A stretch of 64,000 bases of DNA from Escherichia phage vB_EcoM_Skers, in sequence record MW748999.1; one strand, written 5' to 3'. The notes beneath the pieces are model-generated. The model had not been told where the DNA came from. It did no database searches and saw only the letters and a list, made by a program, of their open reading frames with translations. Both the position numbers and the translations under genes were made by a program. Shown here in pieces: positions 2,054 through 54,580 of the stretch. Each line of letters begins with the position of its first letter. The first letter of the stretch is position 1.

Positions 2054-3140
2054 TGTCTCAATAAAACTTTATCAGGATTATGAGGCATTTCTAAATCATC
2101 GCTTTATAGAGTTGGGTGCTACCTTTGTTACAATGACTCTGCGTGATTCGATTCGTGGGGTGAATGAAGGATTGTTGCAATTCTATGATAATAAGGCGAT
2201 GCATACAAAATTAAATGGGAGAGAGATCATTCAGATTTCGCTATCCACTGCTAATACAGATGAAGTGTTTAACCGAATCTATGGGATCTCTCATAGTAAT
2301 GTAACAATTGACCAAAAATCCGACAACATTTTAACATTCCAGTTAAAGAGCTATCACGAAACACTAAACCTTAAATTTTCTCGCTCATTAACAAATAACG
2401 CTGTTAATAACGTAACTAGCATGATTGATGCCATCTATAAGGAAGTTCCTTTATGGAAACCTACTATAAAGGGTGATAACGTTGTTATTCCTCGTTGTCC
2501 GTGGGTTAGTACCGTAAATGACTATATGGATTTTGTGAGGGCATACGGGCAAAGCGTAGAAACAGAGTCTTTCGTGTATTGCTGGGAAGATTTTGATGGT
2601 ATAACGATCGCTGGACACGATACATTATTAAAAAATGAGCCAATACCAGCTATAATCTGTGAGCCTAGACTCATGGGTCAATTTATTGATATGTCACCTA
2701 ATCTGATGGTTTTTAATTTCGAGTGGCAGACTAAGAGCAATGCTAAAGTCAAAAACTCGTTTAACAATGTGACATACACAGCTATTGATTTTGTTACTAA
2801 GCAGTATAATAAAATTGTTGTTGGTAATGGGGATAATATTGCACACTTTGCTCATGGTGGCGCTTATGGAGATTTAACTTATAAGAATGCGTTTTTGGAA
2901 GGTTCTAAACTTGCCACAATAGAACAATATGATTCGTATGCTACCGCCGTGTGTCACGGTAATTTTTCGTTGCGCCCCGGTATGGTTATTCGATTCTTTG
3001 ATGAGAAACAACAAGCACGCAATGATTTTATTGTTGACGAAGTTGTGCATGAAATTAGCCGAGAGCAATCATTAACTCACCTGTATATGATCGGTAACAG
3101 CGAAGAATTACAGGAAGTCAAATTTGAAGGTAAGATATAA
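2031..3140 (+). CDS. 27: Baseplate hub subunit gp27
   Basis: 369 aa; N-terminus MQRTGFPNVSIKLYQDY resembles recalled T4 gp27; gene order 51-27-28-29. Confidence 0.8.
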   Translation: MQRTGFPNVSIKLYQDYEAFLNHRFIELGATFVTMTLRDSIRGVNEGLLQFYDNKAMHTKLNGREIIQISLSTANTDEVFNRIYGISHSNVTIDQKSDNILTFQLKSYHETLNLKFSRSLTNNAVNNVTSMIDAIYKEVPLWKPTIKGDNVVIPRCPWVSTVNDYMDFVRAYGQSVETESFVYCWEDFDGITIAGHDTLLKNEPIPAIICEPRLMGQFIDMSPNLMVFNFEWQTKSNAKVKNSFNNVTYTAIDFVTKQYNKIVVGNGDNIAHFAHGGAYGDLTYKNAFLEGSKLATIEQYDSYATAVCHGNFSLRPGMVIRFFDEKQQARNDFIVDEVVHEISREQSLTHLYMIGNSEELQEVKFEGKI

Positions 3141-3658
3141 TGACAGAAACTAAACCTATGTTAAAATTTGTTGTTCCTGTAAAAAAATTAGAGATAAACG
3201 GGAAACATATTAAGATCCCAAAAATGGGGATTAAGCAACATCGATTATTAAAAGATGTTCGTAGCTGTGATGAAACATTAAAGATTCTTCTTGATTCAAT
3301 CTGTCCTGGGTTAAACGCTGCCGAGTCTGAATTGGTTATGCTTAACCTTTGTGCGTTTAATGGTAAGTGTCTGGAAGAAAAAGATGGTCTTAAGCTGTCT
3401 GATGTGTATATTTGTACAGAGACCGAATTTACTTTAAATGGTAAAGTCTTTAAATTTAAAAATCCAATGTATACTTCTGACCCCATTATCGATGACGCTG
3501 ATTTCTTGAGTCATCATTATCACGATCCTAGTGTAGACTTCCATGATTTCCCAGCTTTTATTATGGATTGGGCTACAGGATTAAGAAAAACTATTGCGCT
3601 GGATACGCCGGAAGGCACTATCTATGGTGGAATTAACATATTGGATCGCCTATCATGA
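3140..3658 (+). CDS. 28: Baseplate hub distal subunit gp28
   Basis: 172 aa (T4 gp28 is 177 aa); start overlaps gp27 stop; position. Confidence 0.75.
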   Translation: MTETKPMLKFVVPVKKLEINGKHIKIPKMGIKQHRLLKDVRSCDETLKILLDSICPGLNAAESELVMLNLCAFNGKCLEEKDGLKLSDVYICTETEFTLNGKVFKFKNPMYTSDPIIDDADFLSHHYHDPSVDFHDFPAFIMDWATGLRKTIALDTPEGTIYGGINILDRLS

Positions 3659-5388
3659 ATGACGCATTAACATCATTTCGCGGGATGCGCAAGGAAGCGG
3701 AAGAAAATCCGATTGATAAACTTAACAAGTTAGATAAACTTGATTCTATTGATAATTTGCAAGCCGCTACCGAATTGGTGGCGGAGACAGTAGAACAAAA
3801 ATCTAATGAAGTTGTTGGTGCGGTAGAGGATAACACCGCAGCCAATGAATTGACGGCAGAGAATACCCAATCTACCGCTGGCAATACCCAAAAAACTTAT
3901 GAAGAATTGCAAAAACTCAATAATTTCTCTTCTCAGATGAATGAGAAATTACGTGGTTTTGGTGTTATGATGGAACGTAGATTTGGTGTTGTCAGTAAAA
4001 TGGCTAGCGGTATTGGTGCGATTGAAGAAGCACTGAAAAAACCTGAACAACCGCAAACAATGCCATCACCTCAGCCAGTTTTGCCTACTGTACCGGAACA
4101 GCCTAATAATGACAACTATCAAGGTCTTCCAAAGAAAAAACCAGATGTTGAGGAACGGAAGAAAAAGAACGCCGCAGATAAGCGCAATGCGGATTCTATG
4201 GAAAATCTTCTTAAAGTTGTTCGTGGAGGATTTAAAGAAACCATAGGTATCTCTAATAAGGTCTTAGGGATGTTATTTAAGATCACCTTGACCGCTATGG
4301 CAGAAGCCGCAAAATGGGGCGCTATTTTGATGGGTATTGTTTTTGCCATCGACACCCTTATGATTCATTTCAGATATTGGAGTGATTTATTCGAAACAAA
4401 ATTCGATGAATTTATGGATAAGGCCGGAGAATGGGCTGGACCAATTAGTGATATTCTAACAACTATTCGTCAAGTTCGAGATTATTGGTCTAAAGGTGAA
4501 TATGGAGAATTAATTAAATCTCTTGTTATGGGTATTGGTGATGCATTCTATAAAACCTTTATCCAACTTGATCGAATTATCACTACTGGTATTGCTAAAA
4601 TTCTTCGCATGATCCCTGGTATGGGTGATTATGCCGATAAGTTAGAATATGGTGCTTTAAAATCTGCTGTCGCTCAAGGCTATACGCCAAATGAAAGAGA
4701 ACTCGAATTAATGGATAAGGTCGAGTCTGAACACGAAGAGGACAAATACGGGGAGCGTACTGGCTGGACCGGAAAAGCCCGTGATATTGGTGAGGCTATC
4801 GGTGACTCCATTAAAGATAAAGTTAACGAGGGTCTTGTTAGTCTGGGCTGGAGAGATCAAAAGGATGTTGACGCAGAGAAGCGACAAGAAGAATTAAAAC
4901 GCGGGGAATATGAGTCTGTTTCTGCTGAACAGCGATCTGCTAGTCGTAAACTTAGAATTAAAAGCGAGGGCGCGATCAATAATATTAATGAAGTTATGGA
5001 GAACTTGAGCGGTGACTATGACAAAGAAAAAATTGGAGAGTTGAAAAAGGATATTGATGTTTACCGTGAGCAAGTTCAAGATCCTACATTAGTTGAAAGT
5101 GATCGTTCTCAGTTAGAGCGTCTTATTGAAAAATTTGATGAGATGTATGCTGATAAAACTAAGGGTGTGGTTCCAGCTAAATCTGTTCCGGCAACTGAAA
5201 CGGAAACAGCAAAACAAGCGGAACGTACTGAACAAATGCAGAAACAAGCTGCAATCCAGCAACAAACGACAAATCAGACCTCAAACGTAAATAATACACA
5301 AATTGTAACAAACAATAGAACTATTAAACAGGGTGCACCAACAACTAGAATTGATGCACCAGGTACAATTAATATGGGGAACTTTTAA
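3655..5388 (+). CDS. 29: Baseplate hub / tail length determinator gp29
   Basis: 577 aa (T4 gp29 is 590 aa); charged coiled-coil-rich sequence; position. Confidence 0.8.
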   Translation: MNDALTSFRGMRKEAEENPIDKLNKLDKLDSIDNLQAATELVAETVEQKSNEVVGAVEDNTAANELTAENTQSTAGNTQKTYEELQKLNNFSSQMNEKLRGFGVMMERRFGVVSKMASGIGAIEEALKKPEQPQTMPSPQPVLPTVPEQPNNDNYQGLPKKKPDVEERKKKNAADKRNADSMENLLKVVRGGFKETIGISNKVLGMLFKITLTAMAEAAKWGAILMGIVFAIDTLMIHFRYWSDLFETKFDEFMDKAGEWAGPISDILTTIRQVRDYWSKGEYGELIKSLVMGIGDAFYKTFIQLDRIITTGIAKILRMIPGMGDYADKLEYGALKSAVAQGYTPNERELELMDKVESEHEEDKYGERTGWTGKARDIGEAIGDSIKDKVNEGLVSLGWRDQKDVDAEKRQEELKRGEYESVSAEQRSASRKLRIKSEGAINNINEVMENLSGDYDKEKIGELKKDIDVYREQVQDPTLVESDRSQLERLIEKFDEMYADKTKGVVPAKSVPATETETAKQAERTEQMQKQAAIQQQTTNQTSNVNNTQIVTNNRTIKQGAPTTRIDAPGTINMGNF

Positions 5389-14941: not shown

Positions 14942-15229
14942 TTAAAACAGTCCTTCCTGTACACCGTAGTAGAGTTCATCGCTGATAATTTCATTAATGC
15001 GACGGTGTGCATATTCCTGATTTGCGAAGTTATCAGCAAGTTCTACTTTAGTTTCGCCGTCATGAGTCCATTTAGTGATAACTTTACCATCTGCAAATTT
15101 GAAGTTGAACTCTTTAGCTACCGCATCGCGTACCAGACGTGCAAACTTATTGTTGCGGATTGCATTGTCGGTTTCGTGTGCAGCGTGAGCGAATTTGTTA
15201 ACTTTCAGGGTGATAGTAATGTATGCCAT
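14942..15229 (-). CDS. Hypothetical protein (95 aa)
   Basis: ORF with SD; PeSL upstream. Confidence 0.6.
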   Translation of the reverse strand: MAYITITLKVNKFAHAAHETDNAIRNNKFARLVRDAVAKEFNFKFADGKVITKWTHDGETKVELADNFANQEYAHRRINEIISDELYYGVQEGLF

Positions 15230-15275
15230 AATTTGATTCTCCTAGTTAGAAAGTGTATCTCGTTTCGATGGGTGT

Positions 15276-15304
15276 ATTATGCTATACACCCGATCTTATG
15301 TCAA
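15276..15304 (-). promoter_or_regulatory. PeSL-type early promoter cassette
   Basis: TTGACA-N17-CATAAT; palindrome GGGTGTAT/ATACACCC. Confidence 0.7.
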
Positions 15305-15310
15305 CACTTT

Positions 15311-15589
15311 TTATAAAATAATTTTTTGATATTTTTCTATGATGTTCGTGTAAGTCACATCAACCGCTAGCACCGTTGCTTCGAATCCACCGTTTAGCCA
15401 ATGGCTATGATCATGATCGTGAAAGAAACCTAGACCAGTACGAAGACCTTCTTTATATTCTGCGCGTACATTCAGTTTGTCGTCGATAAACAGATAAAAC
15501 CATGAATTTTTACTAGGATTGATGATACAACCTTTCAGATTAGGGAGAATATCACGACTAAGAATAAACTTATCACCTACTTTGAACAT
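15311..15589 (-). CDS. HxHW-motif small protein family member (92 aa)
   Basis: FIDDKL, HDHSHW, LAVDV. Confidence 0.6.
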   Translation of the reverse strand: MFKVGDKFILSRDILPNLKGCIINPSKNSWFYLFIDDKLNVRAEYKEGLRTGLGFFHDHDHSHWLNGGFEATVLAVDVTYTNIIEKYQKIIL

Positions 15590-15603
15590 AATATTTTCCT
15601 CAC

Positions 15604-15912
15604 TTATAAAGTTTGACCGTTGTTTTTCGCATAATGCTTAATGCGTGCTTGATCTGCTTCCGCTGGTGATAGATTCCATGCAACCACTACAACTTCTGAC
15701 GCATCATGATCATTATCACTTACCCAATGATTATGATTCATACAATTGTTTGCTATCGCGTGAGTAAATGATCTCATTACCGGAGACGTATAATCATAGT
15801 AACGGATTTTCAGATTTTCATCAACGTACAAGTAGATCGTATACGGCTTATATTCAGTAACCAGTAACAGACAGTTACGCAATTCTGGGAAAATCTTTTT
15901 AGTTAATTTCAT
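15604..15912 (-). CDS. HxHW-motif small protein family member (103 aa)
   Basis: Start trimmed to ATG 15912 (SD GAGGA); YVDENL, NHNHW. Confidence 0.55.
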   Translation of the reverse strand: MKLTKKIFPELRNCLLLVTEYKPYTIYLYVDENLKIRYYDYTSPVMRSFTHAIANNCMNHNHWVSDNDHDASEVVVVAWNLSPAEADQARIKHYAKNNGQTL

Positions 15913-15913
15913 T

Positions 15914-16135
15914 TTATAATCCTCGGTCGCGGCTATAGTACACTGTACGCCATACAATTTCATGTTTCGTGTCGCTCCAGCACACGATCTCATTTACTCT
16001 TAAATCTTTGTTATCAACAAAAGATGAACATTGTGACGCTTCTTTCATCATTTTATCTGCTGTTTTCTCATCAAATACAGCACAGATTTCTTTATACACT
16101 CGATAATCTTTAAACTTGCTCATAATTAACACCAA
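15914..16135 (-). CDS. Hypothetical protein (73 aa); tandem paralog of 16126..16335
   Basis: Shared MSKFKDY...KMM.EAS.C.SF pattern with neighbouring gene. Confidence 0.55.
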   Translation of the reverse strand: MVLIMSKFKDYRVYKEICAVFDEKTADKMMKEASQCSSFVDNKDLRVNEIVCWSDTKHEIVWRTVYYSRDRGL

Positions 16136-16335
16136 TCAAGAGTTTTTGAAAACACATCTATCCATTGTTGAGTATATGCGGTTTCTTTCCATGACACAAT
16201 ACCAGTCGAATAATGGTTTTTGTTTCCAGAAAAGGACGGGCATTTTGATGCATCTTCCATCATCTTTTCGGCGAACTCTGGTGCGTATACTCGCAGGATC
16301 TGTTGATATGCTTTATAGTCTTTAAATTTGCTCAT
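16126..16335 (-). CDS. Hypothetical protein (69 aa); tandem paralog of 15914..16135
   Basis: See paralog. Confidence 0.55.
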   Translation of the reverse strand: MSKFKDYKAYQQILRVYAPEFAEKMMEDASKCPSFSGNKNHYSTGIVSWKETAYTQQWIDVFSKTLDWC

Positions 16336-16600
16336 AATCGTTAACTACCTTATCAGCTTCTTTTATTGTTTTTACATCAACTGCGATAATCCGTAAAGGT
16401 TCGTCGAAGGTCCACCAGTGGTCATGAATATCAGCTTGTGATTTATCACCAAAGGAATCACGAATATCATTTTTACATTTATAGCTAATGTGACCTTCAT
16501 AGTCAACATAAAGGTAATTATCGAAAATCGGCGTTTTTAAGATCATACCGAAAAATCTTTCTTTGTGTGTCTTATCCAGTGTTGCAGTAATTCGCATCAT
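16322..16600 (-). CDS. HxHW-motif small protein family member (92 aa)
   Basis: YVDYEG, HDHWW, IAVDV. Confidence 0.6.
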   Translation of the reverse strand: MMRITATLDKTHKERFFGMILKTPIFDNYLYVDYEGHISYKCKNDIRDSFGDKSQADIHDHWWTFDEPLRIIAVDVKTIKEADKVVNDYEQI

Positions 16601-16612
16601 AATATATTCCTC

Positions 16613-16792
16613 TTAGAAAGGGATGGTCATTTCTTGAGCTTGTACATTCTCGTTAGGATTAAACTTCATCCAACCGATATTGTCTACCAGCATATGCACA
16701 TTTTTATCATATCCTACGTGAGTAGTCAACACTAAATGTGCTTTACCTTCAACGATGATTTCCATGTACTTCTGAACTTCGATAGCTTTCAT
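16613..16792 (-). CDS. Hypothetical small protein (59 aa), not in ORF track
   Basis: ATG 16790-16792 after SD GGAGAATCAAAA and PeSL promoter; translation MKAIEVQKYMEIIVEGK.... Confidence 0.45.
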   Translation of the reverse strand: MKAIEVQKYMEIIVEGKAHLVLTTHVGYDKNVHMLVDNIGWMKFNPNENVQAQEMTIPF

Positions 16793-16825
16793 TTTTGATT
16801 CTCCGTTTGTTGTCTTGATGGGAGT

Positions 16826-16854
16826 ATATTACTACTCCCTTTAATCATTGTCAA
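16826..16854 (-). promoter_or_regulatory. PeSL-type early promoter cassette
   Basis: TTGACA -35; palindrome GGGAGTA/TACTCCC spans AT-rich -10. Confidence 0.65.
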
Positions 16855-16857
16855 CTA

Positions 16858-17025
16858 TTATTTGTTAATTTCCGGTGCGTTGCTCGGATAGTAACCTTCT
16901 TTAACACCCAGATATTTCGCAACCATTCCGGTGATCTTCTGTGCTACTACGATATCGAATTTCAGGTAGTCTTCACCGTGGTTTGCTACAATGTATGCTT
17001 CGCATTCTGCTTTAGTCTGGAACAT
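16858..17025 (-). CDS. Hypothetical small protein (55 aa); paralog of 13587..13754
   Basis: MFQTKAECEAYIVANHGEDYLKFDIVVAQK... near-identical to 13587..13754 product. Confidence 0.55.
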   Translation of the reverse strand: MFQTKAECEAYIVANHGEDYLKFDIVVAQKITGMVAKYLGVKEGYYPSNAPEINK

Positions 17026-26341: not shown

Positions 26342-26370
26342 ATATTACTACCCCCGTTATTCAGTGTCAA
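26342..26370 (-). promoter_or_regulatory. PeSL-type early promoter cassette
   Basis: TTGACA; palindrome GGGGGTA/TACCCCC; near-duplicate of 26061..26089. Confidence 0.65.
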
Positions 26371-52746: not shown

Positions 52747-52938
52747 TCACTTATCGTTAAGAAGTTCTAAAACTTTCTGTCGTACTTTGTCAATATTAGT
52801 TGATTCAAAAACTGTACGGTATCCCCAGCTTTGACCGTATGAGCGGTTGCAATCTCCATATCCCCATTGTTCAACCTGATAGTATTCAAGGAATGGATGC
52901 TGCCGAACTATGATACCATCGCGATTAAAAATTACCAT
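52747..52938 (-). CDS. Hypothetical protein (63 aa)
   Basis: ORF with SD GAGGA; truncated -35-like CGTCAACA motif immediately upstream. Confidence 0.5.
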   Translation of the reverse strand: MVIFNRDGIIVRQHPFLEYYQVEQWGYGDCNRSYGQSWGYRTVFESTNIDKVRQKVLELLNDK

Positions 52939-52961: not shown

Positions 52962-53249
52962 TTATTTTCGGTTGTGGTCACGATATGTTTTAAAATATCC
53001 CTCGTACCACGGTAAAACATCTGGATTTTTACCACTATACAGACCTTTAACCATCATGTCAATAAGACCGTCCGGTGTTTGATAATTACCAGCTTTTATA
53101 AGCTCTCTGATTAAAATTTCCCTGTATATGTCTTTCGGATCTTCGTAATCAACTTGTATCGTTGTTGTGGTCTCATTCAATTTGGTTTCTGGAGTATCTT
53201 GCATCGCCTTCCACCAATCTTTTGTGATCTTCATGTTATTGAATTGCAT
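52962..53249 (-). CDS. Hypothetical protein (95 aa)
   Basis: ORF with SD GAGG. Confidence 0.5.
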   Translation of the reverse strand: MQFNNMKITKDWWKAMQDTPETKLNETTTTIQVDYEDPKDIYREILIRELIKAGNYQTPDGLIDMMVKGLYSGKNPDVLPWYEGYFKTYRDHNRK

Positions 53250-53260
53250 AATTTAACCTC

Positions 53261-54019
53261 TTACTTGCAAACGTATTGATCTACATCAATTGCGCCACCG
53301 AATGTAGGATGACGTTTTTCAAATCGAATAGTTCCGTCGTTTGGTTCGAAAACGGAGTATTCATATAGATCTTTCTTACCAACATTCTTATAAAACCCGC
53401 CTTTAGTCATAACGGTTTCTTGTACGTTTGCTTTGTGTACGTTGTATTCATCAATGTATACAAAATCAACCATCTTCCCATTTTTAATGGTTACTTTAAG
53501 ATCCCCTGGCTGGTTTCCATATTTTGCATACAGTGGAGCCTCTTTAATTTTGGTGGAAATTCCATCTTTCATACTCCACTCATAACGAACGGTGCATTGA
53601 TAGGTAAAAGTTTCGTCCTTCGGTTCTTCCACCACTTTTTCTTCCTGTTTCGGTTGTTCTTCGTCAACCTTTGCAGAAGTCTCTGAATCGCTTTCTGACG
53701 CGGTTTCTTCTTTAGGTAATACATTCATCAAGTTTTGGATTTGAGCGTTGTATACAGCCTCCAGTGGCTGAATCTGCCCGATATTGATCATTGTATCACG
53801 AACAGTTTTATTCCAGTTACGTTGTTCTTGTTTCAGAGATGGATCAATCTTAACAGCCTTAACATATACTTCATGAAGTTTCGAATCCAGTGCGGAAATT
53901 GACTCATTAGCACAAATAAACTTCTCTGATTTGGTAGTGGCTTTAGCGCAATCGAAGGACGCAGCATTAGCACCGAATGCAGTAGCAGAAAGAACGATAG
54001 CAGCGATAATGTTTTTCAT
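53261..54019 (-). CDS. Secreted protein with DUF1311 (LprI-like) N-terminal domain
   Basis: Signal peptide MKNIIAAIVLSATAFGANA; pattern C...T..E..IC...LD..L..Y...QR.W...RD. Confidence 0.55.
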   Translation of the reverse strand: MKNIIAAIVLSATAFGANAASFDCAKATTKSEKFICANESISALDSKLHEVYVKAVKIDPSLKQEQRNWNKTVRDTMINIGQIQPLEAVYNAQIQNLMNVLPKEETASESDSETSAKVDEEQPKQEEKVVEEPKDETFTYQCTVRYEWSMKDGISTKIKEAPLYAKYGNQPGDLKVTIKNGKMVDFVYIDEYNVHKANVQETVMTKGGFYKNVGKKDLYEYSVFEPNDGTIRFEKRHPTFGGAIDVDQYVCK

Positions 54020-54053
54020 AATATATTCCTCAGTGTTTTGTCTTGATGGGAGT

Positions 54054-54082
54054 ATATTACTACTCCCTTAATCCGGTGTCAA
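54054..54082 (-). promoter_or_regulatory. PeSL-type early promoter cassette
   Basis: TTGACA; palindrome GGGAGTA/TACTCCC; -10 TAATAT. Confidence 0.65.
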
Positions 54083-54089
54083 CTACTTT

Positions 54090-54245
54090 TTAAATTTCTT
54101 CTACAGTAAAGTCTTCAATGTTGTTGTGCTCGGAGAACGTTGCCAAACCAGCATCCCATGCATCATCCTCAGAGAAGAATACACCGTAACGTTCATATCC
54201 CTTAGCGCCTTCAAATTTAACCATTAATTTGTGAGTATGTTTCAT
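54090..54245 (-). CDS. Hypothetical small protein (51 aa)
   Basis: Start trimmed to ATG 54245 downstream of PeSL promoter. Confidence 0.45.
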   Translation of the reverse strand: MKHTHKLMVKFEGAKGYERYGVFFSEDDAWDAGLATFSEHNNIEDFTVEEI

Positions 54246-54276
54246 TTTGATTCTCCTTCGTTGTCTTGATGAGTTT

Positions 54277-54305
54277 AGTATAGGGGATCGCCGATCCCCT
54301 GTCAA
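54277..54305 (-). promoter_or_regulatory. PeSL-type early promoter cassette
   Basis: TTGACA-N17-TATACT; spacer palindrome GGGGATCggcGATCCCC. Confidence 0.75.
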
Positions 54306-54319
54306 CCAGTTTTTAGAAA

Positions 54320-54580
54320 TTATTTTCGCCATTCACCGGAAACAATGAAGTTTGTAAAGTGATTGTGGTCCGTGATAATGTCATTAAGTACCATATGCGG
54401 ATATGCTTTAGTGTAATCACGTTTACGATCAGTCATCCAACCAACGAAAGTCGGTGCAAAGTACGGCACACCGTCAGATGATGCCATATTAAACCCTTTA
54501 TCAGCCATAAATGCAGCCGCCCTAAGATTTTTAATTGAAGTAGTGCGACTAATTTCAAAAACTTTATCAGTAAAATTCAT
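54320..54580 (-). CDS. Hypothetical protein (86 aa)
   Basis: ORF after PeSL promoter. Confidence 0.5.
   Translation of the reverse strand: MNFTDKVFEISRTTSIKNLRAAAFMADKGFNMASSDGVPYFAPTFVGWMTDRKRDYTKAYPHMVLNDIITDHNHFTNFIVSGEWRK

Follow-up and report, generated by a model that had tools for sequence, protein, structure and literature searches.

ORF262 of Krischvirus phages, a predicted periplasmic protein with a constant DUF1311 module and an exchangeable C-terminal beta-barrel

What does a T4-type phage do with a secreted protein that the databases name after lysozyme inhibition? This question was addressed for a locus in a 64,000-nucleotide stretch of Escherichia phage vB_EcoM_Skers (MW748999.1), referred to here as the window, which belongs to an RB49-like (T4-type) coliphage of the genus Krischvirus. 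The first-pass annotation had described positions 53261-54019 as a secreted DUF1311 (LprI-like) protein with its own promoter, and had proposed that it modulates cell-wall hydrolases, including the timing of the phage's own endolysin, or acts in superinfection exclusion. Of that interpretation, export, the DUF1311 domain and the early-type promoter were retained, while lysozyme inhibition as a function and endolysin timing were not. The account was also incomplete, as it had missed the C-terminal barrel, the allelic replacement of this barrel and the homologues in E. coli prophages.

The ORF262 locus and its promoter

The interval corresponds exactly to one open reading frame of 252 aa (53261..54019), which lies on the minus strand with its ATG at 54019-54017 and its stop codon at 53261-53263; DUF1311 covers only the N-terminal third of the product. 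The gene is equivalent to RB49 ORF262 (RB49p262; UniProt Q7Y3G7), which is annotated in RB49 as 'hypothetical protein' and matches phrog_14799, a PHROGs family without assigned function. When about 4 kb around ORF262 was compared with 58 Krischvirus genomes, the 20 best matches showed 93-97% identity, and the end of the window maps to RB49 coordinate ~3.9 kb. ORF262 is a real gene and not a chance ORF, as it was found in 58/58 Krischvirus records and strong purifying selection acts on its N-terminal module.

ORF262 is located in a variable early region with topoisomerase gene 52 on one side and the holin gene t on the other. Its neighbours are small phage genes without known function, and no cognate periplasm-acting effector lies alongside. 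The downstream gene, a homologue of RB49 ORF261 encoding 95 aa (52962..53249, minus strand), starts 11 nt past the ORF262 stop codon and is probably co-transcribed with it. Within the ORF261 coding sequence, a near-consensus sigma-70 site (53062-53034, minus strand; TTGACA-17-TATAGT, 11/12 matches) was observed, which judged from its sequence could drive the next small gene (52747-52938). On the upstream side, a mechanically called 80-aa ORF (54090-54332, minus strand) overlaps a stem-loop promoter element at 54305-54277; the annotated RB49 ORF263 has just 51 aa, with an ATG at 54245 behind a GGAGA ribosome-binding site.

The claim of an own promoter was borne out. An exact TTGACA box (54082-54077) is separated by a 17 nt spacer from TAATAT (54059-54054), and a 7-bp stem-loop, GGGAGTA/TACTCCC (54067-54048; -11.9 kcal/mol), overlaps the -10 box. 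The stop codon TAA of the preceding gene (54090-54092) is inside an AT-rich run, and a Shine-Dalgarno sequence, GAGGA (54027..54031, minus strand), is placed 7 nt ahead of the ATG. The upstream stop codon in its AT-rich stretch, the -35 box and the stem-loop over the -10 box together form a cassette at 54048..54095 on the minus strand. Promoter-early stem-loop (PeSL) cassettes of this kind were described in phages phi1 and RB49 (Arbiol et al. 2010, PMC2839356). They combine a sigma-70 consensus with an AT-rich upstream stretch that contains the stop codon of the previous gene and with a stem-loop often over the -10 box, and PeSLs other than that of ORF262 were experimentally confirmed as strong early promoters and terminators in phi1/RB49 (PMC2839356). 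The element upstream of ORF262 fits this description in full, in its boxes, its AT-rich stop codon, its stem-loop and its repetition, and is thus a member of the group. The promoter type of ORF262 is therefore already published and hence already explained, and the gene is predicted from this sequence to be expressed early from its PeSL.

The repetition was evident in a scan of the whole window. The minus strand held 32 TTGACA-N16-18-TAnnnT sites and the plus strand 0, compared to a mean of 3.2 for both strands together in shuffled sequences. A near-identical copy of the ORF262 promoter/stem-loop unit is present at 16854, with closely related copies at 26370 and 26089. Many of the 32 sites carry near-identical GC-rich stem-loops, and at least two repeated PeSL subfamilies are scattered in the window. 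One has the stem over the -10 box (54082, 16854, 26370 and 26089, minus strand), and the other has stem-loops of the GGGGATC...GATCCCC type (54305, 18226, 17088, 11440 and 13572, minus strand).

A DUF1311 module joined to a beta-barrel

The cleavable signal peptide of the earlier description was confirmed by hydropathy and an AXA motif. Residues 1-19 (MKNIIAAIVLSATAFGANA / AS; 53963..54019, minus strand) consist of an MK n-region, a 13-residue hydrophobic core and an A-N-A cleavage motif of the signal-peptidase I type, followed by A-S. A search of ORF262 for a lipobox gave none, and no further hydrophobic segment was detected. ORF262 is therefore, as far as its sequence allows a prediction, a Sec-exported and soluble periplasmic protein.

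The mature protein begins with a constant N-module (aa 20-103; 53711..53962, minus strand), a DUF1311/LprI-like domain that is modelled with three helices and contains Cys24 and Cys36. The DUF1311 pattern reported from the sequence was present as C24...T28..E32..IC36...LD45..L48..Y52...QR67.W69...RD75, and the Pfam profile PF07007 (LprI) matched aa 24-76 above its cut-off (26.2 bits compared to a gathering cut-off of 22; E 1.1e-5). This match spans profile positions 1-71 of 106 only, leaving the C-terminal third of the profile unmatched. The other ORF262 alleles and the prophage homologues scored 24.4-26.4 bits against the same profile. Members of the LprI family have four conserved cysteines that form two disulfides (PMC7933661), and the N-module of ORF262 holds just Cys24 and Cys36, so that the second pair is absent. 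In AlphaFold2 models built on homologue alignments, aa 1-21 were disordered and aa 30-98 formed three helices at moderate confidence (pLDDT 55-72). Neither the full protein nor the N-module, nor a profile of the C-domain, gave a meaningful sequence match in the PDB, and searches of PADLOC and NCBIfam with ORF262 gave no significant match.

With other PF07007 LprI/DUF1311 proteins (the solved structure 3GI7; the T6SS immunity proteins Etsi4 and Psi15; Salmonella ScwA), ORF262 shares the 'FDC-x-KA-x4-E-x2-IC ... QR-x-W' signature and the export signal and, by prediction, a helical make-up and the periplasmic location, in a family that is tied to cell-wall-acting enzymes. However, its profile match stops after the first two thirds, it has two cysteines instead of four, and it is fused to a swappable beta-barrel.

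ORF262 is thus composed of two modules joined by a linker, and two thirds of the protein, namely linker and barrel, are not DUF1311. The linker (aa 104-134; 53618..53710, minus strand) is acidic, rich in Glu, Lys and Pro, disordered and variable in length, with pLDDT <50 for aa 104-132. Its length varies by repeat units of the EEKQPE/VEEPK type (alignment columns ~125-150), and the proteins of otherwise similar alleles are between 240 and 273 aa long.

The variable C-module (aa 135-252; 53264..53617, minus strand) is modelled as a small beta-barrel of 8-9 strands with two cysteines, Cys142 and Cys251. When aa 135-251 were modelled alone, an all-beta structure was obtained at high confidence (pLDDT 88.8, pTM 0.81), and its closest structural matches suggest the eight-stranded up-and-down type. 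In this model Cys142 lies in the first strand and Cys251 in the last, and the barrel is predicted to be bracketed by a Cys142/Cys251 disulfide. A search of 1.84 billion representative proteins with the barrel profile retrieved its own cluster and three giant repetitive proteins only. The latter (1,479-2,746 aa) match the first ~35-64 residues of the profile in 5-6 repeats (E 2e-6 to 4e-4), perhaps through a beta-hairpin repeat that they have in common with the barrel, or as an artefact of composition. Several small phage proteins in BFVD resemble the barrel, two of which are annotated as lipoproteins.

LprI of M. tuberculosis likewise combines DUF1311 with a small module of the beta-barrel type in one exported protein, and its lysozyme inhibition was attributed to its second domain, MliC (PMC7933661). 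ORF262 could accordingly be a true inhibitor of the LprI type, in which a diverged MliC/PliC-like barrel guards against animal or phage lysozymes within the same layout. However, ORF262 has no MliC signature and is not a lipoprotein, and its barrel is non-conserved and replaceable. Pfam showed no match of MliC (PF09864) to ORF262 at E<=1, and the barrel profile found no inhibitor in the PDB. The modelled barrel is compatible with an MliC/PliC-like fold, which the data do not specifically indicate, and we consider this explanation decidedly unlikely.

Exchange of the barrel among virulent phages and prophages

The two modules differ in their variation across Krischvirus. The RB49-type barrel was present in 44 of the 58 records, the Phi1/GEC-3S type in 12/58 and the JSE type in 2/58. 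Proteins of 43/44 RB49-type records were 97-99% identical to the window protein, the remaining one (FL04) being 89.7% identical. The Phi1/GEC-3S type was 62-67% identical over the whole protein, and the JSE type matched residues 1-103 only. A profile-profile comparison of the RB49-type and JSE-type barrels gave a probability of 3.6%, with similarity in the first strand only. When metagenome, phage and E. coli homologues were aligned, residues 1-~120 were near-invariant and the C-domain ranged from ~35% identical to unalignable. The DNA of the window, Phi1 and JSE was 92-100% identical over the region upstream of the gene and over its nt 1-350, and identity dropped to 30-60% from ~nt 380, in the linker. 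The fall at nt ~354-384 places the recombination junction within the linker, at about aa 118-128. These comparisons indicate at least three barrel alleles, deeply diverged or unrelated, that are joined in the linker. The diversifying exchange of ORF262 thus sits within the coding region and not at the PeSL.

The codon analysis separated the two halves further. In the N-module, dS was 0.10-0.31 and dN <=0.023, with dN/dS of 0-0.13 (about 0.02). In the barrel, synonymous sites were saturated and dN reached 0.6-1.2. The two halves thus differ in their history, the barrels being old alleles that were recombined onto one young and strongly constrained 5' module. Rapid point-mutation divergence, considered as a source of the barrel variety, does not fit this codon pattern.

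The allele type does not track the species, since the Makalu phages (Krischvirus gec3s) carry the RB49 type and GEC-3S itself the Phi1 type. Nor does it track gp5, which is at least 98.8% identical in all Krischvirus records; the candidate explanation that the barrel is tuned to the genus's own gp5 was rejected on this basis. The adhesin gp38 is at least 97% identical among RB49, Phi1 and JSE, yet each of these phages has a barrel of another type, and the two main barrel alleles occur in both gp38 classes. The ORF261 homologue is itself allelic. It is 47-51% identical to its counterparts in Phi1, JSE and Makalu, with conservation at both ends and divergence in the middle, and its allele is unlinked to that of ORF262, as in Makalu_002, where an RB49-type ORF262 is combined with a Phi1-type ORF261.

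A receptor exclusion similar to that of T5 Llp would place the specificity in the barrel, which would bind the periplasmic face of an outer-membrane receptor and block the phages that use it, with DUF1311 as a mere scaffold. The gene is early and periplasmic by prediction, allelic variation is typical of exclusion specificity determinants, and the structural look-alikes of the barrel in BFVD include the two annotated lipoproteins. However, the barrel is uncoupled from the phages' own adhesin gp38, as described above, and ORF262 is not a lipoprotein. This role is quite improbable in our estimation.

The sharp junction between a conserved 5' part and a non-homologous 3' part, with alleles shared horizontally, resembles CdiA-CT, Rhs and colicin-style proteins. 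Unlike these, ORF262 has no co-varying immunity-like gene and no detected toxin domain, and it is a small soluble periplasmic protein. A toxin-immunity module was rejected, because the downstream ORF261 does not co-vary with the barrel and the E. coli copies occur without such a downstream gene.

Outside Krischvirus, the N-module was detected in 26/5,426 complete E. coli genomes at 96-100% DNA identity, linked to a JSE-like barrel in 6 genomes and to other barrels in 20. The DNA that the E. coli copy has in common with the virulent phage extends from the ribosome-binding site into the linker. The neighbours of the E. coli copies are prophage genes and hicAB. In E275 and O55:H7 DEC5A, the LprI-family gene is the last gene of a prophage inserted in hicB, directly at the junction; in the DEC5A piece examined (E. 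coli O55:H7; 1-21342), the antitoxin gene hicB is truncated by the prophage and hicA is intact. Pfam and PADLOC searches of the genes neighbouring the E. coli prophage copy gave no informative domains. IMG/VR contigs of ~24-36 kb, which are probably prophages, also carry the gene at the contig end, with several barrel types. By this sequence evidence, related virulent phages and E. coli prophages trade the barrel as a cassette.

More distant relatives occur in other T4-type phages, such as Klebsiella Marfavirus and Aeromonas Ceceduovirus, as proteins of 239-250 aa in which 'AASFDC' comes after the same signal peptide and the DUF1311 module is ~40% identical to that of ORF262. Their C-terminal domains belong to another family, phrog_4675, and in other viral contigs the DUF1311 module is fused to yet other domains. 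Among these C-terminal partners no functionally informative domain was found, DUF4431 alone having appeared. The species-representative genomes of GTDB, when scanned, yielded no relative.

A further candidate role is that of a lipocalin-type small-ligand barrel, which would sequester a periplasmic lipid, nucleotide or signal molecule. The resemblance to such barrels is at fold level only (2-13% identity), and a single ligand is hard to reconcile with a barrel that is replaced by unrelated folds. We regard this as very improbable.

Candidate partners in the periplasm

The names under which these proteins are filed, 'Lysozyme inhibitor LprI-like N-terminal domain-containing protein' for Q7Y3G7 in UniProt and 'lysozyme inhibitor LprI family protein' for the E. 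coli copies at NCBI, do not amount to a function, nor does the Pfam label establish activity. In the ScwA paper the label was noted to lack experimental evidence, and deletion of Salmonella scwA left lysozyme sensitivity unchanged (PMC7933661). The first-pass use of this name as a function was therefore not upheld. Nevertheless, the most plausible class of function is a periplasmic one, directed against hydrolases of the cell wall or serving to exclude superinfecting phages.

Own-lysis timing through inhibition of the endolysin belongs to the same proposals and is suggested by the holin gene t at a distance of about 2.3 kb. However, the RB49 endolysin (RB49p102; 4719-5108 in the piece examined) is a Peptidase_M15_4 enzyme and neither a lysozyme of the T4 e type nor a muramidase, the promoter of ORF262 is of the early sigma-70 type, and the prophage copies are located at the attachment-site end and not in a lysis cassette. 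Endolysin timing, as put forward in the first-pass annotation, is thus highly improbable.

Two cell-wall enzymes were checked for a lysozyme domain, the RB49 endolysin and gp5, and gp5 was the only positive. It carries a Phage_lysozyme domain at aa 189-320 (gene at 15150-16952 in the RB49 piece examined), and Krischvirus gp5 is <60% identical to gp5 of other T4-like genera. In T4, the gp5 lysozyme is inhibited by Spackle, an early, periplasmic, helical protein with a disulfide (PMC7677548). A tblastn search and a small HMM, applied to the RB49 sequence together with the window and so to all but ~3.9 kb of the genome, gave no Spackle homologue. The Spackle role therefore appears vacant in Krischvirus, where the gp5 lysozyme domain is present and Spackle was not found. 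T4 Spackle (gp61.3, phrog_1586) and ORF262 have in common an early gene, a signal peptide and, for ORF262 by prediction, a small helical periplasmic domain with a disulfide. However, ORF262 is three times larger and has an extra barrel, it did not match phrog_1586 (its matches being phrog_14799 and phrog_4675), and no structural similarity to Spackle was seen.

By analogy with Spackle, we tentatively propose, at somewhat less than even confidence, that ORF262 is a periplasmic guard against incoming lysozyme-fold muramidases, and that it is an analogue and not a homologue of Spackle. Within minutes of the start of an infection, or in a lysogen constitutively, ORF262 would occupy the periplasm and would bind and neutralise lysozyme-fold muramidases arriving from outside. 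In Krischvirus the obvious target would be the gp5 tail-spike lysozyme of superinfecting phages, and the same logic would extend to muramidase toxins of the pesticin or T6SS type. The invariant DUF1311 module would contact a conserved partner, and the exchangeable barrel would bring in a further binding specificity that differs between strains.

Several observations are consistent with this proposal. Export is supported by the signal peptide, the AXA site and the cysteine pairs in both modules. One conserved and one variable partner would fit an N-module under strong purifying selection combined with anciently diverged barrels. The absence of a detected Spackle, with gp5 as the sole lysozyme domain of the two enzymes checked, also favors a guard. 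The presence of the gene throughout the genus counts in favor of it too, and the last gene beside a prophage insertion site is a typical place for accessory genes that protect the lysogen. Early expression in the virulent phage and the attachment-site-proximal position in the prophages would suit a protector of a living cell's envelope.

Membership in DUF1311 lends support as well, because proteins of this family have a precedent against periplasmic cell-wall toxins. The DUF1311 protein Etsi4 counteracts the toxicity of Etse4 in the periplasm of E. coli (PMC12981562), and genes for LprI-domain proteins adjoin T6SS effectors with lysozyme-like or pesticin domains, where they are treated as immunity genes (PMC9796082; bioRxiv 10.64898/2026.08.01.741415). 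Unlike T6SS immunity proteins such as Etsi4 and Psi15, ORF262 is encoded in virulent T4-type phages and prophages with no toxin gene alongside.

Other observations argue against a guard. Marfavirus encodes both Spackle (phrog_1586) and a DUF1311 protein, so that the latter is not simply a Spackle substitute. In Klebsiella phage PWKp16 (Marfavirus), a true Spackle homologue and the two-module DUF1311 protein lie within 2.5 kb (107-421 and 2501-3253 in the piece examined), flanking the primase gene. No DUF1311 domain itself has been biochemically linked to lysozyme inhibition, and the neutral scwA deletion points the same way. Furthermore, the model of the N-module is moderate in confidence, the Pfam match is partial and the second cysteine pair is missing. 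The barrel allele is also independent of gp5, gp38 and ORF261, and neither PADLOC nor NCBIfam lent support.

The conserved partner could instead be a host enzyme. ScwA, a soluble periplasmic LprI-domain protein with disulfides, raises MltD levels, and its prolonged overproduction leads to lysis (PMC7933661). By this comparison, the DUF1311 module of ORF262 would bind a peptidoglycan enzyme that is conserved in E. coli, such as the lytic transglycosylase MltD, and would reshape murein turnover for infection or for the lysogen, and foreign enzymes would not be blocked. A near-invariant N-module over virulent phages and prophages of one host would suit such a partner. However, ScwA has a different layout (275 aa, all-helical, with a C-terminal LprI domain), direct binding of ScwA to MltD has not been demonstrated, and the hypervariable barrel is left unexplained. 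We judge a ScwA-like modulator unlikely, and continue with the guard as the preferred reading.

The LprI-like domain call (UniProt and NCBI) and the PeSL promoter type were known already. In the literature searched, including the phi1/RB49 comparison, there was no mention of the two-module layout with an orphan beta-barrel and linker-sited cassette replacement, of a module common to virulent T4-type phages and hicB-integrated prophages, or of gp5 as the sole lysozyme-fold candidate target found in a genus where no Spackle was detected. The new part is the cassette-like variation common to Krischvirus and E. coli prophages.

A broader proposal, which we hold to be rather unlikely, is that ORF262 represents a new class of modular periplasmic exclusion/immunity proteins common to virulent and temperate coliphages. 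In this class the fixed DUF1311 module would neutralise T4-lysozyme-fold muramidases, such as tail-spike lysozymes and pesticin-like toxins, and so take the Spackle role in Krischvirus, and the barrel cassette would set a second, strain-specific target. If true, the DUF1311 domain itself would thereby gain its first real biochemical function. DUF1311/LprI is a large family widely annotated as 'lysozyme inhibitor', and we found no demonstration of this activity by the domain itself. Even if the function of ORF262 proves ordinary, the over-reading of a database name is corrected here. Krischvirus offers a clean and testable system for the family, with a universal and constrained DUF1311 gene behind an early promoter, a tail-spike lysozyme fold as the only one found and no Spackle detected. 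Finally, gene-internal module exchange across phage lifestyles is documented for this gene, which suggests an arms-race partner.
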